This document shows, piece after piece, positions 17,807 through 25,738 of a stretch of 32,000 bases of DNA (position 1 is its first letter; the number at the start of each line of letters is the position of its first letter). This DNA comes from Candidatus Saccharimonadota bacterium (GTDB lineage Bacteria > Pseudomonadota > Gammaproteobacteria > Enterobacterales > Enterobacteriaceae), in assembly GCF_000185985.2 (NCBI RefSeq), contig NC_014909.2, positions 420,001 to 452,000 on the forward strand. The letters run 5' to 3'. The notes under the pieces are model-generated. The model did no database searches, was not told the origin of the DNA, and was given only the letters and a program-made list of their open reading frames with translations. A program made the position numbers and the translations under genes.

Positions 17807-18156
17807 AAATTATTTTTAATTAAATTGATATATTAATATCCAAATAAAAATTAATAAGCATTTTAACAAACTCTATACTACATTCATACATACGATCTTA
17901 TAAAAATAAGAACATTATTATATCAATTCTTATTGTAAAATTACAAAATCTATGCTTTAAGCTCTAAGCAACTTATTATTGCAATATCAAATTTGGTTCA
18001 ATCACAATAAATTATATATATAAACAATATTAAACAATATTTTTTTTATTAATGCTCATAAATTATTGATGCAATATACTGCCTATGCCATCAAATAAAA
18101 CATAAATATATTTATGTACTATTACTATAAAAAATTATAAAATTTTAATTATATAA

Positions 18157-19161
<1,005 letters not shown>

Positions 19162-19299
19162 AACAATTACCACTATATTAGCAATTATAACTATATGTTA
19201 TAATATAACACATAATATAATAAAAATTAAATTATTAAATAATAATCATGATGAGACCCGATATAAAGTTACTCTACGTCTTATAATAAGAGATGTCAT

Positions 19300-19518
19300 A
19301 TGATAAAAGAAGAAAATATTGAAATGAACGGTATAGTATTAGACACTTTGCCTAATACTATGTTCAGAGTGCGTTTAGAAAACGGACATATAATTATGGC
19401 GCATATTTCCGGAAAAATTAGAAAAAATTACATTAGAATTTTAACAGGAGATAAAGTCACTGTAGAACTAACCCCATATGATTTGAGCAAGGGACGAATT
19501 ATTTTTCGAAGCAGATAA
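19300..19518 (+). CDS. infA: Translation initiation factor IF-1
   Basis: The 72-aa product is nearly identical in pattern to E. coli IF-1 (..[56 protein letters not shown]). Confidence 0.98.
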
Positions 19519-19532
19519 AATAAATATAATAC

Positions 19533-19571
19533 TTCACAATAAGAGATATAGCTGCAGCAAGTTATTGTGAA
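19533..19571. terminator. Candidate bidirectional intrinsic terminator between convergent infA and the TonB-dependent receptor gene
   Basis: Perfect 10-bp inverted repeat: TTCACAATAA (19533-19542) and TTATTGTGAA (19562-19571). The 19-nt loop itself contains the palindrome GCTGCAGC. A/T-rich runs flank both sides. Confidence 0.5.
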
Positions 19572-19595
19572 ATTGTTATATTTTAACTTTATTGC

Positions 19596-21788
19596 TTATA
19601 ATATAATTTCTGCTTTAATCCACCATGTTCGACCTGATTCATAAATAAGTTTTTTTGAGTTATATTGAGTTACATCATAATTATTTAAAAAATTATTTAC
19701 ATGTTCTCTATAAGTTTTATTCAAAATATTATCAATACCAACAGTATATGTATAATAATTAGGAATTCTCCATGCTAAATATGCGGATATTACCCCAAAA
19801 CCTGGCGTATGCAATATATCTTGTGTATATTTTTTAAATAAAAAATTATAGGAACAAAAAGTAGATAAAAACTTTTCTATATATTGCGATGATGAGACCA
19901 ATCTCCATAATATTCCTAAATTATAATTTTGTTTTTTAAATTGACATGTAAATTTCCCTTCTAAAGGAGGGATAGTAGGTAATATACATTGATTATCCTT
20001 ATTTATACCCCAAGCCCATGATATATTACTTTTACCAAGCCAATAATCATTTAATTTATAACTTACACCCATTTCAGTCCCACATATATTAGCATTCGAA
20101 TTCTTCATACAATCAACAATATTGTCCTGTATCAAATTACTATCAACATTATTGTTATATTTATAACAAATAAAATCTTTTATATACCCTATATAAGACG
20201 TTATCCATCCATCTATTTTTGTTTTTTTTAAATGAGCCCCCATATCTATCTGAATAGTTTTTTCAGGCTTTAATTGAAAAATTAGATTCTTACTTTTTAT
20301 ATTGTCATTAAACCTATTTAATATCAATTCCCAATAATCAGGCAAACGTTGACATACACCTACTCCAAGATAATATAAAAATTCCGGATAAATAACACCT
20401 TCATATCTCATAAACCCAGCTGGATATGTCACATCTCTATAATACACAGCATAACAATCATCGTGTATATCAACAACACTATGTTCTATTCTAATTCCTC
20501 CGATAATTTTTTTATTTGGTAACATATTAAAAATAAATTCATTAAATATTCCTGAATCTAAAGAATAATTATGTATTTTAGAATCACACATCAATTGAGT
20601 ATTTTTTCTATATTGATTAATTTGAATATCAATGCCGCTATAAAACTGAAAATTTTCCCATTGACATGTAATAAAGCCTCGAGACCCCCATAAAGACCGT
20701 TCTACATCATTAACATTAGTTTTACATTGAGTAGAACAACAATAATATTGTTTTGGAATCAATGTCGATGATAAATTTTTAACAAAAGATACCGTAGAAT
20801 CAATCATGATATGATGTATATGATGATACCAGGATTGAATTTCAATTGAATTTAAAACATCATTAATACCTGGGGTTTCTATTCTAAATCCATAACTTTC
20901 TCTAGCAAAACATAATCCATCCATACCTGTAACTGCATAATTTACTCTAGAATTCCCTTGACCTAAATTAATATCTATAAATGTATTAGATCTAAAATTA
21001 AATGATAAAATAGCATCTGCACTCCACTTGTACCACGCAGAATGCACTGGGTGATTATTGCCATCATAATAATTTCCAGAGTAATTACAATTACCTATCA
21101 ATCTAATATAGCCATATTTGTTACCTAATATACTGTCTATATTTCTATATATGCTATCATTCGATCCAACAATCATACTACTACAAGTTTTGATTTGTGG
21201 TGAATTAAAATGGGGATGATAACGCCGAAATTGTAAAATACCTCCTGAAGTTACTGGCCCCCATAACACCGTTTGAGGACCTTTAATTATATTTAAAATA
21301 TCAAAAGTCTCCGGAATAATATAAGCGGTAGCAGGATCCATGCCAGAACAACAAGCTCCAATTATTTCACCAGAATCCGCTAAAATACGTATTTTGGAAC
21401 TAGTTATTCCTCTTAATACAAAATTATTATTAGTCCCCCCATTACGAATCATAGAAAATCCTGGTATATTTTTCAAATAATCAACAGAATCAGTAATAAA
21501 TGAATAATGTTGTAATGATTTTATAGAATCAGACACAGAAATCAATGAAGTATTTACTTCAGCAATGATAGTAACAACTTTGTTATTTTTACTATCTTTA
21601 AATAACGGAGGAAATTTTTTACAAGTAAGCGTTGAAGACGTTTTATGTTGCAATGAACCAGATGATAAATAATCATCATTGGCGTAAATGTTATTAGTTA
21701 TGCATAAAATGCATATACATGTCGCTATATATAAAACAAAATAAATTACGCTTTTTAAAAAATCATTAGATACATATTTCAGTATCAC
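19596..21788 (-). CDS. TonB-dependent outer-membrane receptor, OprC/NosA-like (putative copper receptor)
   Basis: Signal peptide (..CITNNIYA), TonB-box-like KVVTIIAE, and plug domain (NIPGFSMIRNGG..FVLRGI.., IIKGPQTVLWGPVTSGGILQF). A long beta-barrel with an aromatic-rich C-terminus (GRTWWIKAEIIL) follows. The plug carries C146-C-S-G-M150 (comp 21339..21353, TGT TGT TCT GGC ATG). The barrel carries YHHIHH-I-M (H326-I-M328, comp 20805..20813). This is the CxxxM...HxM pattern reported for Pseudomonas OprC. GTG start preceded by a strong SD. Confidence 0.85.
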   Translation of the reverse strand: MILKYVSNDFLKSVIYFVLYIATCICILCITNNIYANDDYLSSGSLQHKTSSTLTCKKFPPLFKDSKNNKVVTIIAEVNTSLISVSDSIKSLQHYSFITDSVDYLKNIPGFSMIRNGGTNNNFVLRGITSSKIRILADSGEIIGACCSGMDPATAYIIPETFDILNIIKGPQTVLWGPVTSGGILQFRRYHPHFNSPQIKTCSSMIVGSNDSIYRNIDSILGNKYGYIRLIGNCNYSGNYYDGNNHPVHSAWYKWSADAILSFNFRSNTFIDINLGQGNSRVNYAVTGMDGLCFARESYGFRIETPGINDVLNSIEIQSWYHHIHHIMIDSTVSFVKNLSSTLIPKQYYCCSTQCKTNVNDVERSLWGSRGFITCQWENFQFYSGIDIQINQYRKNTQLMCDSKIHNYSLDSGIFNEFIFNMLPNKKIIGGIRIEHSVVDIHDDCYAVYYRDVTYPAGFMRYEGVIYPEFLYYLGVGVCQRLPDYWELILNRFNDNIKSKNLIFQLKPEKTIQIDMGAHLKKTKIDGWITSYIGYIKDFICYKYNNNVDSNLIQDNIVDCMKNSNANICGTEMGVSYKLNDYWLGKSNISWAWGINKDNQCILPTIPPLEGKFTCQFKKQNYNLGILWRLVSSSQYIEKFLSTFCSYNFLFKKYTQDILHTPGFGVISAYLAWRIPNYYTYTVGIDNILNKTYREHVNNFLNNYDVTQYNSKKLIYESGRTWWIKAEIIL

Positions 21789-21792
21789 TATA

Positions 21793-21799
21793 TCCTCTT
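21793..21799 (-). promoter_or_regulatory. Shine-Dalgarno sequence (AAGAGGA) for the TonB-dependent receptor gene
   Basis: The mRNA sense reads AAGAGGA-TATA-GTG. This is an unusually strong purine-rich SD for this AT-rich window and supports the GTG at 21788 as the start. Confidence 0.5.
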
Positions 21800-22135
21800 T
21801 TTTTATATAATTATCATTATTATACTTTCATATGACTAATAATTAGTTATATATTAAAAAATATTTATTTTTAACCCTTAATTATGTAAAACAATTTTTA
21901 TATATTATTCTGATTGTTATACTTTAATGTTATAATAACGTAACATACTTATAAGAGTCTATCAAAATATATAATATATACTAGATTTTTAAGATATCTT
22001 ATTGTATTCTTTTTAATTAATTAATAAGTAAATAACGGATACCTTAAGGGGCCGTATTTTAAAAGATATACATATGCTCTTTATATGACATATATATAAT
22101 TCTTAGTTTGTTTATGTGTAAATGGGAATTATTAA

Positions 22136-22777
22136 ATGCAATATATTATTCATTCGAATATAATTTTTGATACTACAGAATATATATTAAAATCATTACA
22201 CAATGACAACAATTTAATAAAATTATCTAATTCTTCTGGCCGAATTTTAGAAGAACTGATCAAACATCGTCATACCGGATCCCCAGTTACTCGAGAACAC
22301 TTATTTACAGTAGTGTGGAAATCCTACGGGTTAGAACCATCTCATGGAAACTTAAATCAACAAATTAGTTTAATAAGAAAAAATTTAGCCATTTTTGGAG
22401 TAGATTCATCTTCTATTCTAACTATTCCTAAACGAGGATTAAAATTAAATAATCAACTAACAATAAAACAAATAGAAAATGATCCCGAAAATAATTATAT
22501 TTCCCCGAATCAATATGCTCATGATTCTACCAAATCCAACATTGACAAAAACGACAATATTACATCACGTAACTCTAATCCGTTTCATACTCAAACCTAT
22601 ATAAAATACATTATTACCTTAATAATTACACTATTTTTTGTATTTACCATAGGTTTTATATATCTATACAATAAAACCAACAGTATCAAATTATACTGTT
22701 GTAAAGAAATCAATTCATGTAATATCTGTACTTTTCCTATTATATCAGAATTCGAGTTTCAAAACAATGAAACATAA
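22136..22777 (+). CDS. ToxR/CadC-like membrane-anchored transcriptional regulator: OmpR/PhoB-type winged-helix domain, one TM helix and a short Cys-rich periplasmic tail
   Basis: aa ~25-105 (LIKLSNSSGRILEELIKHRHTGSPVTREHLFTVVWKSYGLEPSHGNLNQQISLIRKNLAIFG...ILTIPKRGLKL) align with the CadC/ToxR DNA-binding domain (..LEPRLIDLLVFFAQHSGEVLSRDELIDNVWK....VVTQSISELRKSL...IATVPKRGYKL). There is a single hydrophobic helix, YIKYIITLIITLFFVFTIGFIYLY (nt ~22598-22669). The tail is 35 aa: NKTNSIKLYCCKEINSCNICTFPIISEFEFQNNET. GGGAA lies 8 nt upstream of the ATG. Confidence 0.75.
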   Translation: MQYIIHSNIIFDTTEYILKSLHNDNNLIKLSNSSGRILEELIKHRHTGSPVTREHLFTVVWKSYGLEPSHGNLNQQISLIRKNLAIFGVDSSSILTIPKRGLKLNNQLTIKQIENDPENNYISPNQYAHDSTKSNIDKNDNITSRNSNPFHTQTYIKYIITLIITLFFVFTIGFIYLYNKTNSIKLYCCKEINSCNICTFPIISEFEFQNNET

Positions 22778-23024
22778 TATCTTAAAACTATTTAAGTATA
22801 AATTAAAAATATAAAAACTATTATAATGCTACTCTGTATATAAAAACACGTATCATTTATATACATAAATCATTATTTCTCATACATATAAAGACAATTT
22901 TTTCTAATTTACTAAAATTATTATCATGGTGATTAATTAATAAATAACTTCATTAAATTATCTTCTATATACTTAATAGAAATTAATTTAAATATTCACT
23001 TGCATCACAATATTGTTCTATACA

Positions 23025-23705
23025 TCAATGTTTAGCATAATTTTTATTATTTAACATATACACAGAATTCACTTTAAATAAATAACGATACGCTTGAACA
23101 GAAGGATGATGATATTGAATATACTGGCAAAATTGTTTTGAATTAAGTTTATTAATTTTTTTTATAGCTTGGGTATGATCTAACGTAGAAAAAATTTTTA
23201 ACAATGCCCCCAGTCCATTCACATACGCCACTATCATAGCATATCGTCTAGTTTTCAAATTCATTATATCTGCTAGCTGGTTTTGTAATATATATAAATA
23301 AGCAGTACCTAATTCAATATTAGTGACTGCATTTTTTAATTCTGCAACACTAGGCTGTCCAAGCCGTCCTTTCAACCGATAAATATCTTTACCAGCAGTA
23401 TCTGCCTTTATTTGCATTAACCCAACAGCATTAGATTTACTAACTACGTTTGGATTATAATTAGATTCTACTTGAATAATAGATTTTATTAATAACGCAT
23501 CTACACCATATAATTTAGAGTAATAATTTATATGTTTATCATATGTTTCTGATAAACTAATTTGTTTTTTTGAATTAGAATAATTGTTTGTTTGTTGTTT
23601 TAAAAAACATAATGTTTCTTGATTGTTGTTCAAACGAGGTGAAATCATTATGCATCCCGGTATTATTATTATTAAAAAAATAATATATACTAAATAAAAT
23701 TTCAT
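23025..23705 (-). CDS. mltE: Endo-type membrane-bound lytic murein transglycosylase (MltE/EmtA-like lipoprotein)
   Basis: SLT catalytic region YGVDALLIKSIIQVESNYNPNVVSKSNAVGLMQIKADTAGKDIY compares with E. coli MltE [44 protein letters not shown]. Also ..VAYVNGLGALLKIFS.. and ..HHPSVQAYRYLFKV... The N-terminus is lipobox-like (IIIPGC). Confidence 0.9.
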   Translation of the reverse strand: MKFYLVYIIFLIIIIPGCIMISPRLNNNQETLCFLKQQTNNYSNSKKQISLSETYDKHINYYSKLYGVDALLIKSIIQVESNYNPNVVSKSNAVGLMQIKADTAGKDIYRLKGRLGQPSVAELKNAVTNIELGTAYLYILQNQLADIMNLKTRRYAMIVAYVNGLGALLKIFSTLDHTQAIKKINKLNSKQFCQYIQYHHPSVQAYRYLFKVNSVYMLNNKNYAKH

Positions 23706-24455
23706 TTAAATATTTGAATTAAAAATAATATTTTTCTATACTTACAATTGAAATTAAGATTATATTACGTATCATTATTAAAAAATAAATAACTTAACGA
23801 TCATTTTAAAATAAATATGTATTTCAATACAATTGAATATATATACTTCTCATGCATCAAACTAATATCAATAAATTTAATTCAATAATTTATTAAAAAT
23901 TTTCTATTTGTAGAAACGATTCAATGAGTATTAATCAATTAAGTAAAACATAACTATTATAGCCTATTCATAACTCATCTAATTTTTCATAACACATGAT
24001 ACAACTATTCACTAGAATAATGATATTATATCATTAATTTTTCGCATAACTTTAACTAATTAAATAGCCTTGTCATGTTTTTATAACACAAAATATTTAA
24101 AATAATATAAATACAAATTATGTAAAGAACATATAAACATTACGTCATAACCAATCATATCTATCATAATTATTTATACATATATATAAATTGATAATAA
24201 AATAACTTATAAATATAATATTTTATTATAAATATACAAATATATACATGTTAATATGTATTAATAAAACAATTTATTATATTATTATGTAAATATCTAA
24301 AATATTTACATTGTAAACAGAAAATTAATTTAAAAAAATAAATATATGTTACAGTACTTACTTAAAATAATTTAAAATATTTTATTTTTTATATGTGAGT
24401 TATTTAATAAAAATATTACAATTATGATTATATATACAATATTCCATATTAATTC

Positions 24456-25556: not shown

Positions 25557-25738
25557 ATTAAAATTAATTTTTTAACTATTATCTAAATAGTACTATGTTA
25601 TTAAACATAGAGATTTTTTATCTTTTTAGAAAAATTTTTAGATTAAAAATATGTTTTTAAGTATATTACCACAAAATAATCGTATAAAAATAAAATAAAT
25701 ATTTTATGAAATCATAAAATCAACTAAAAGGTACATAT

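Follow-up and report, generated by a model that had tools for sequence, protein, structure and literature searches.

We examined a divergently transcribed gene pair, oprC and yqeI, encoding a predicted TonB-dependent copper receptor and a truncated ToxR-type transmembrane regulator, respectively, as found at positions 19519–23024 of a 32 000-nucleotide stretch of contig NC_014909.2 (hereafter the window, to which all coordinates refer unless another locus is named). The source of the stretch is most likely the ant endosymbiont Blochmannia, B. vafer; the named homologues nearest to the window proteins are those of B. floridanus, to which the regulator is 62% and the receptor 50% identical. An earlier note, made from the letters of this DNA alone, had placed only two genes between infA and mltE, separated by a 347-bp divergent spacer, and the open reading frame (ORF) coordinates agreed exactly with that claim:

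19300–19518, plus strand: infA (ORF map)
19596–21788, minus strand: oprC, TonB-dependent copper receptor of 730 amino acids with a GTG start (Plug and barrel domains, TIGR01778, 6fok)
21789–22135, no strand: divergent oprC/yqeI spacer of 347 bp, with 17.6% G+C
22136–22777, plus strand: yqeI-like truncated ToxR-type transmembrane regulator of 213 amino acids (Pfam, alignment, AlphaFold2 model)
23025–23705, minus strand: emtA/mltE (ORF map)

The sequence AAGAGGA stands ahead of the GTG start of oprC, and a gap of only 247 bp separates yqeI from emtA. The gene order, which the note had described as non-syntenic, indeed departs from that of E. coli, but infA-oprC-yqeI-emtA is the standard layout in Camponotus-associated Blochmannia. 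Both genes already carry the names oprC and yqeI in published Blochmannia genomes (yqeI being Bfl390 of B. floridanus; PMC1360075), and a gene-order table in the literature shows them side by side.

The oprC product carries a PF07715 Plug domain (35.7 bits) and a PF00593 barrel (58.4 bits), both exceeding their cut-offs, and its top family was TIGR01778, the TonB-dependent copper receptors, at 418.1 bits with the runner-up at 55.7 bits. That score misses the curated equivalog cut-off of 472.45 bits, plausibly because of AT-biased divergence. The structure of Pseudomonas aeruginosa OprC (6fok_A) matched with an E-value of 3.4e-109 over query residues 90–727 and chain residues 87–720; together with the best family, this upheld the view that the receptor is OprC-like. 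Three features of the receptor could be placed by alignment:

21339–21353, minus strand: CxxxM half of the copper site (C146 and M150, within CCSGM), aligning with CPNRM of P. aeruginosa OprC
20805–20813, minus strand: HxM half of the copper site (H326 and M328, within HIM), aligning with the OprC motif
21558–21581, minus strand: TonB-box-like KVVTIIAE (residues 70–77), from alignment with enterobacterial OprC homologues

The copper ligands C146/M150 and H326/M328 were invariant across 21 aligned homologues, five from Blochmannia included, and KVVTIIAE matches the position of DVMIVTAP or DVITVTAP in the enterobacterial homologues. About 33 unremarkable residues separate the signal peptide from this TonB-box-like segment, and the domain search of the receptor, giving Plug and barrel alone, found no STN signalling extension of the type seen in transducers coupled to extracytoplasmic function sigma factors. 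We thereby predict that oprC encodes a TonB-dependent outer-membrane importer of ionic copper with its metal-binding residues intact.

In Blochmannia, oprC is an accessory gene. A published pan-genome table lists oprC and tonB in the Camponotus column only, with yqeI in all three columns, and both oprC and tonB, present in Camponotus symbionts, are missing from B. obliquus and B. turneri (PMC4389277 Table S3). The absence of oprC was confirmed directly in the loci of the Polyrhachis (CP010048) and Colobopsis obliquus (CP010049) symbionts, where infA is followed directly by an intact yqeI and where a tblastn search for an oprC remnant gave none at E<1. The gene tracks tonB and not yqeI, as one would expect of a TonB-dependent transporter. 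As a side observation, the same table lists exbB/exbD for no Blochmannia, although Camponotus symbionts have tonB and oprC, and it lists tolQ-tolR-tolA-tolB-pal for all of them; if the listing is correct, TolQR may energise TonB, or else the receptor may not depend on the usual motor at all.

For the regulator, the following parts were resolved:

22136–22474, plus strand: winged-helix DNA-binding domain, residues 1–113 (Trans_reg_C, ToxR profile match, model)
22598–22669, plus strand: single transmembrane helix, about residues 155–178 (hydropathy, model)
22685–22729, plus strand: periplasmic Cys cluster IKLYCCKEINSCNIC, with C188, C189, C195 and C198 (conservation, checked translation)

The Trans_reg_C domain (PF00486) scored 27.4 bits against a cut-off of 26.2, and a profile of the regulator family matched the DNA-binding domain of Vibrio cholerae ToxR (8b4b) with E=4.7e-13, whereas the match of the same profile to the CadC DNA-binding domain (5ju7) was weak (E=5e-5). 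Kyte–Doolittle hydropathy gave one peak, of 2.63, at residues ~154–180, and the AlphaFold2 model, built on a 48-sequence alignment, had the winged helix at residues 1–115 with a predicted local distance difference test score (pLDDT) of ~95, then a disordered linker and a single long helix spanning residues 150–181. The description of the protein as a ToxR-like regulator with a Cys-rich stub was thus well founded, the tail being both short and Cys-rich.

The nearest relatives outside Blochmannia are proteins of 267–291 amino acids from Sodalis, Wigglesworthia, Acerihabitans, Biostraticola and 'Martelella alba', several of them annotated as YqeI, and the regulator was collinear with these full-length proteins as far as the first periplasmic strand, the membrane helix included, with 35–47% identity to those of Sodalis, Wigglesworthia, Acerihabitans and Biostraticola. 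In free-living relatives yqeI is followed by a FidL-like yqeJ and then by a GGDEF gene, a layout matching the YqeI/YqeJ, MarT/FidL and GrvA/FidL 'co-component' systems, which are kin of VtrA/VtrC and ToxR/ToxS (PMC9214523). As judged from these alignments, the regulator descends from the YqeI proteins of Sodalis-allied bacteria. It was not accepted as a strict orthologue of E. coli YqeI, as the identity was 25–32% with the best value, 32%, limited to the winged helix; because of this low identity, 'YqeI-like' is the safer label.

Compared with its full-length relatives, the window regulator ends about 35 residues past the membrane helix and has lost about 60 C-terminal residues; in the alignment, all Blochmannia regulators end some 35–50 residues past the helix, whereas the relatives extend about 90 residues beyond it. 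The GGDEF gene is gone from the Blochmannia locus along with yqeJ, for which tblastn searches with the B. tofi and E. coli proteins gave no match in the window or in any Blochmannia, Sodalis sp. Psp or Wigglesworthia locus. The full-length proteins carry four periplasmic Cys residues, and where they have KLYFFxQINxCxVYTF, the Blochmannia proteins have KLYCCKEINSCNICTF at the same place, such that three aromatic residues (F, F and Y) became Cys beside one ancestral Cys. The resulting Cys cluster KLYCCKEINSCNIC, with the pattern CC-x5-C-x2-C in place of two ancestral disulfide pairs, is derived and is the most conserved segment of the regulator. Column conservation, computed over 36 intact homologues spanning the whole genus, was 0.80 for the winged helix, 0.37 for the linker, 0.62 for the membrane helix, 0.89 for the Cys core (residues 184–198) and 0.49 for the tail, with the DNA-binding residues invariant and C189, C195 and C198 each present in at least 97% of the proteins. 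The early-branching lineages without oprC have the same Cys core, with one Cys fewer and another Cys downstream. By this measure the regulator is clearly under purifying selection, with the periplasmic stub as its most constrained part. Both dsbA and dsbB are kept in all Blochmannia (PMC4389277 Table S3). In the papers searched we found no description of the co-sensor loss, of the truncation with a derived Cys cluster, of the genus-wide retention or of the single conserved block in the spacer that is described below.

We also noted that Wigglesworthia glossinidia (BA000021.3, locus L004 8001–8804; also locus L013) has a full-length YqeI of 267–271 amino acids with all four periplasmic Cys residues and with no yqeJ, GGDEF gene or oprC nearby. 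Wigglesworthia being an independent ancient endosymbiont, the regulator therefore persists in two unrelated reduced genomes.

Examining the gene neighbourhood in relatives, we found oprC and yqeI as a divergent adjacent pair in B. floridanus and in Blochmannia CP097759, and also in Sodalis sp. Psp, where the pair lies beside trxB as it does in Blochmannia. In the free-living Biostraticola tofi, an oprC gene with DUF2946 upstream of it diverges from yqeI, yqeJ and a GGDEF gene. The remaining 11 of 12 informative free-living loci had yqeI-yqeJ-GGDEF beside hxlR and no receptor, the upstream neighbours of yqeI in these non-paired loci being hxlR and a ketoacyl synthase gene; they came from Sodalis RH21, RH13 and dw_96, four Acerihabitans, one metagenome-assembled genome, 'Martelella alba' and two metagenome contigs. 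In Sodalis RH21 oprC instead has yfcL and mnmC as its neighbours, some 1.9 Mb away from yqeI, and in Serratia it follows DUF2946 with no such regulator nearby. Wigglesworthia yqeI lies between pgpA and rpoD, with no receptor within 8–10 kb. The outcome that the earlier note had named as refuting its idea, co-localisation of the two genes in no relative, was hence not observed, the pair being present in B. floridanus, CP097759, Psp and B. tofi though not in the other free-living loci or in Wigglesworthia. In a neighbour-joining tree, the yqeI-adjacent oprC sequences (Blochmannia with Psp, then B. tofi) fell outside the group of Serratia and Sodalis RH21, a topology that is compatible with one ancestral juxtaposition of oprC and yqeI. 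The window oprC differs from those of Serratia and B. tofi in having no DUF2946 partner gene upstream, and a tblastn search for a DUF2946 remnant in the spacers gave no credible match.

In the free-living Sodalis-allied bacteria (loci L014–L017, L019–L024, L029 and L030), the yqeI-yqeJ-GGDEF triad was conserved, with a common 26-nucleotide element, GTGTACGCTGAACAAGTCCGATCAGT, about 300 bp upstream of yqeI at the hxlR side of the spacer, and with a TATAAT-like box and the leader element ATATTGGC also upstream of yqeI. As yqeI-yqeJ is linked there with a diguanylate cyclase gene, this suggests cyclic di-GMP signalling downstream of the co-component system.

We then compared the spacer between the two genes with those of other Blochmannia and found three features of note:

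21979–22016, no strand: conserved non-coding block TACTAGATTTTTAAGATATCTTATTGTATTCTTTTTAA, the strongest candidate for a cis-regulatory site (alignment with B. floridanus)
22035–22055, no strand: GC island ACGGATACCTTAAGGGGCCGT, containing CCTTAAGG (composition)
21798–21831 and 21895–21928, plus strand: 34-nucleotide direct repeat, 28/34 identical, with the copies 97 bp apart

The conserved block was identical to B. floridanus (locus L001 5812–5849) at 33 of 38 positions, and its core CTAGATTTTTA recurred without mismatch, and with the same orientation, ahead of yqeI in CP097759 (locus L027 3782). When seven orthologous spacers of the window and B. floridanus were compared by their best 30-nucleotide window against a null of 200 trials, the oprC/yqeI spacer alone exceeded the null, with 27/30 identical positions against a null maximum of 25 (0/200 trials). 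The other six (17807–18189, 19162–19299, 19519–19595, 22778–23024, 23706–24455 and 25557–25738) showed no block beyond random, ordinary promoters being no longer recognisable at this divergence. The spacer alignment with four other Blochmannia displayed general saturation. In the three genomes the block lay 155, 187 and 219 bp from the yqeI ATG and about 191, 241 and 372 bp from the oprC start. On the minus strand the block reads TAAGA-N5-TAAAA, then ATCTAG, resembling the ToxR box TNAAA-N5-TNAAA; we regard this as a lead and not a test.

The GC island, which had been put forward earlier as a candidate operator, is a real compositional outlier, with 12 G/C in 21 nucleotides giving it the highest G+C of all 21-mers in the spacers of the window and with only 64 of 20,000 shuffles of the spacer reaching its G+C. 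As a conserved operator it was rejected, having no counterpart in the alignment with four other Blochmannia, B. floridanus and CP097759 included. The spacer does hold a candidate control element, as the note had proposed, but this is the conserved block at 21979–22016. An RNA hairpin at either the island or the block was likewise discarded, with fold z-scores of -0.5 to +1.0 (-0.5 for the GC island), and no Rfam family reached the gathering thresholds across the window, one sub-threshold snoRNA match inside yqeI being spurious. A repeated motif, ATTRTTATACTTTMAT, was also rejected as a binding site, having 16 matches in the window with 21.8 expected. The search for a shared YqeI box in the upstream regions of 13 full-length relatives yielded only the TATAAT element resembling a -10 box, the leader element and the hxlR-side element, none of them recognisable in Blochmannia. 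The direct repeat, just upstream of the oprC start, exceeded all of 300 first-order Markov nulls (maximum 26) and was absent from the B. floridanus and CP097759 spacers; it is specific to the window lineage and might reflect either a recent duplication in place or a site that occurs twice.

Taken as a whole, oprC and yqeI are real, functional-looking and anciently adjacent genes that do not form a closed two-gene circuit. Our best explanation overall, to which we would give an even chance of being correct, is that they are inherited neighbours kept for separate reasons, with the regulator as a remnant that possibly has a local site. Both neighbours would come from a Sodalis-allied ancestor, each having been retained for its own reason, and yqeI would be what is left of a YqeI/YqeJ 'co-component' ToxR-like system without the lipocalin-like co-sensor YqeJ and the diguanylate cyclase. 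Its periplasmic sensor would have shrunk to about 35 residues, leaving the winged helix, the linker, one membrane helix and the four-Cys cluster. DsbA and DsbB would oxidise the cysteines of the stub, with the disulfides stabilising or dimerising it, and by analogy with ToxR, TcpP and CadC we infer that these disulfides might replace the lost sensor domain and partner. The outcome would be a membrane-tethered regulator no longer needing a ligand-sensing partner, which presumably binds AT-rich DNA, with the block at 21979–22016 as the likeliest local site, for its own promoter, that of oprC, or both. A regulatory link between the two genes through this predicted site is possible, and kin of YqeI do control adjacent surface genes, such as in the case of MarT-misL (PMC9214523). 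The main role of the regulator is however not control of oprC alone, because yqeI is kept in all Blochmannia, also in those without oprC. Most likely, the locus holds an accessory copper importer beside a stripped-down ToxR-like regulator with wider or other duties.

Several observations weigh against this explanation. The shared origin of the three oprC/yqeI arrangements rests on a long-branched and weak neighbour-joining tree; the block was undetected in the two lineages without oprC and kept only in part in CP097759; it could be a plain core promoter and not a regulator site; a scan of the spacer for sigma-70 promoters and terminators was uninformative in such AT-rich DNA, with 6 sites found and 8.3 expected; and the regulator tail, residues 188–213, had a pLDDT below 50 and no modelled fold. 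The linkage of the block to oprC is furthermore confounded, since the lineages without oprC are also the most divergent.

Alternatively, the two genes might be historical neighbours with no regulatory link, YqeI acting on distant genes or only on itself, oprC being constitutive and the block the core promoter of one of the two genes. Gene order in Blochmannia is frozen, making adjacency within the genus uninformative, the regulator is kept independently of the receptor, and the distance from the block to yqeI varies less than that to oprC. We nonetheless hold this to be somewhat unlikely, as frozen synteny alone hardly explains why Sodalis sp. Psp and the free-living B. tofi also have the divergent pair, and as the six other spacers keep no promoter-sized block, such that the oprC/yqeI spacer seems more constrained than an ordinary promoter. 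At the other extreme stands a dedicated circuit, in which the Cys stub would sense an envelope, copper or redox signal and the regulator would mainly switch oprC from the shared spacer. The divergent pair is conserved in three lineages, one of them free-living, and the block between the genes was detected only where oprC is present; CueR, CopRS and CusRS are unlisted in the Blochmannia gene tables with no other copper regulator evident; and Cys clusters of the CxxC type can bind Cu(I). Such a circuit is still unlikely in our view: two Blochmannia lineages without oprC keep both yqeI and its Cys motif intact, Wigglesworthia yqeI has no receptor nearby, 11 of 12 informative free-living loci are unpaired, and oprC co-varies with tonB rather than with yqeI. 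The minimal two-gene circuit of the earlier note is accordingly not supported, as two Blochmannia lineages lost oprC and kept yqeI.

In a further variant, the CC-x5-C-x2-C stub would allow the truncated YqeI to sense copper or redox state in the periplasm on its own. Spanning the inner membrane, this single protein would respond directly to periplasmic Cu(I) or to the status of disulfides and set transcription of oprC and of other genes. For Blochmannia, neither CueR, CopRS and CusRS nor a copper exporter is listed by such a name in the pan-genome table (PMC4389277 Table S3), which leaves room for a stub of that kind; because the stub is conserved also where the receptor is gone, we consider this improbable. 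Finally, the truncated regulator might be a decaying relic, non-functional and not yet deleted. In favour of this, some 60 residues are missing from its C-terminus, the partner yqeJ and the GGDEF gene next to it are gone, and its Pfam score is barely over the cut-off (27.4 versus 26.2). This we regard as very improbable, with 36 intact homologues found genus-wide, invariant DNA-binding residues, conservation of 0.89 in the Cys motif against 0.37 in the linker and a winged helix modelled at a pLDDT of ~95. The Blochmannia symbiosis is moreover about 40 million years old (PMC4389277), sufficient for a useless gene to vanish, as oprC did.

In common with YqeI/YqeJ, MarT/FidL and GrvA/FidL (Kinch et al. 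2022, PMC9214523), the window regulator has an N-terminal winged helix of the OmpR/PhoB type, one membrane helix and a periplasmic C-terminus, and as with E. coli YqeI, the full-length relatives in Sodalis, Biostraticola and Acerihabitans precede a FidL-like gene. The window regulator itself differs from these systems in having no co-sensor gene, no folded periplasmic alpha/beta domain and no C-terminal disulfide. The statement in the earlier note that no such system was known to its author needs correcting as to the regulator, whose type is known from the YqeI/MarT/GrvA branch (PMC9214523). A TonB-dependent receptor as its neighbour is unreported for that family in the papers searched.

ToxR/ToxS of V. 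cholerae is similar in being membrane-tethered and in the profile match of the DNA-binding domain. ToxR controls OmpU and OmpT, and its periplasmic cysteines govern its stability and dimerisation. In contrast, the window regulator has no ToxS-like partner or folded periplasmic domain, and what it may control is an active transporter, not a porin; the ToxR-ompU/ompT case appears among the references of PMC10269533. As for the receptor, it aligns with P. aeruginosa OprC (PA3790) over residues 90–727, retains the CxxxM/HxM residues and the Plug and barrel domains, and also has a TonB-box-like segment. Copper homeostasis in P. aeruginosa is controlled by CueR and CopRS, and copper stress represses OprC there (PMC10903467).

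Two other ToxR-like proteins are of interest for comparison, the regulator scoring only 20 bits against the CadC family NF007540, where the cut-off is 400. CadC of E. coli is a ToxR-like one-component regulator acting on an adjacent operon, with a periplasmic disulfide taking part in its switch. Unlike the window regulator, it has a large periplasmic sensor and LysP as a partner. The regulon of WmpR, from Pseudoalteromonas tunicata, includes a TonB-dependent receptor, and this case would set a precedent for receptors of that kind being under the control of a ToxR-type protein. WmpR is however full-length, belongs to a free-living marine bacterium and is not encoded beside the receptor; it is cited in PMC2536512 as a ToxR-like regulator linked to iron uptake.

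Blochmannia gene tables list few DNA-binding regulators, namely zur, mntR, slyA, cysB in one lineage, and yqeI. How genes are regulated in such symbionts is a question on which YqeI bears, as a tractable candidate for residual gene control retained in every Blochmannia lineage sampled and also, in full length, in Wigglesworthia. The conserved block offers a defined DNA probe for this purpose. If it is a YqeI operator, the locus would provide a rare approachable regulator–target pair in an uncultivable endosymbiont. If it is not, divergent adjacency in a frozen genome would be weak evidence of function, and the result would still be useful in showing the copper receptor to be an accessory gene that disappears along with TonB. 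A copper- or redox-sensing stub would, if true, add a new way of sensing to those of the ToxR-like regulators and give the first regulator–target pair defined in Blochmannia.

Three minor observations were made outside the gene pair. The emtA-mnmA spacer of the window (23706–24455, 750 bp) is where mntR is located in other Blochmannia (locus L026 9498–9968 and locus L027 6662–7126), and neither the gene nor a detectable remnant was found in this spacer in the window or in B. floridanus, the window lineage therefore having one fewer of its few regulators. In Sodalis sp. SoCistrobi (locus L012 1–1505), no intact ORF is present in the 1.5 kb that precede yqeI-yqeJ-GGDEF and extend to the contig end. 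In Acerihabitans sp. KWT182 (locus L024 10001–10805), yqeI is split over two frames and the upstream ketoacyl synthase gene lies in four pieces, and both therefore look like pseudogenes there.

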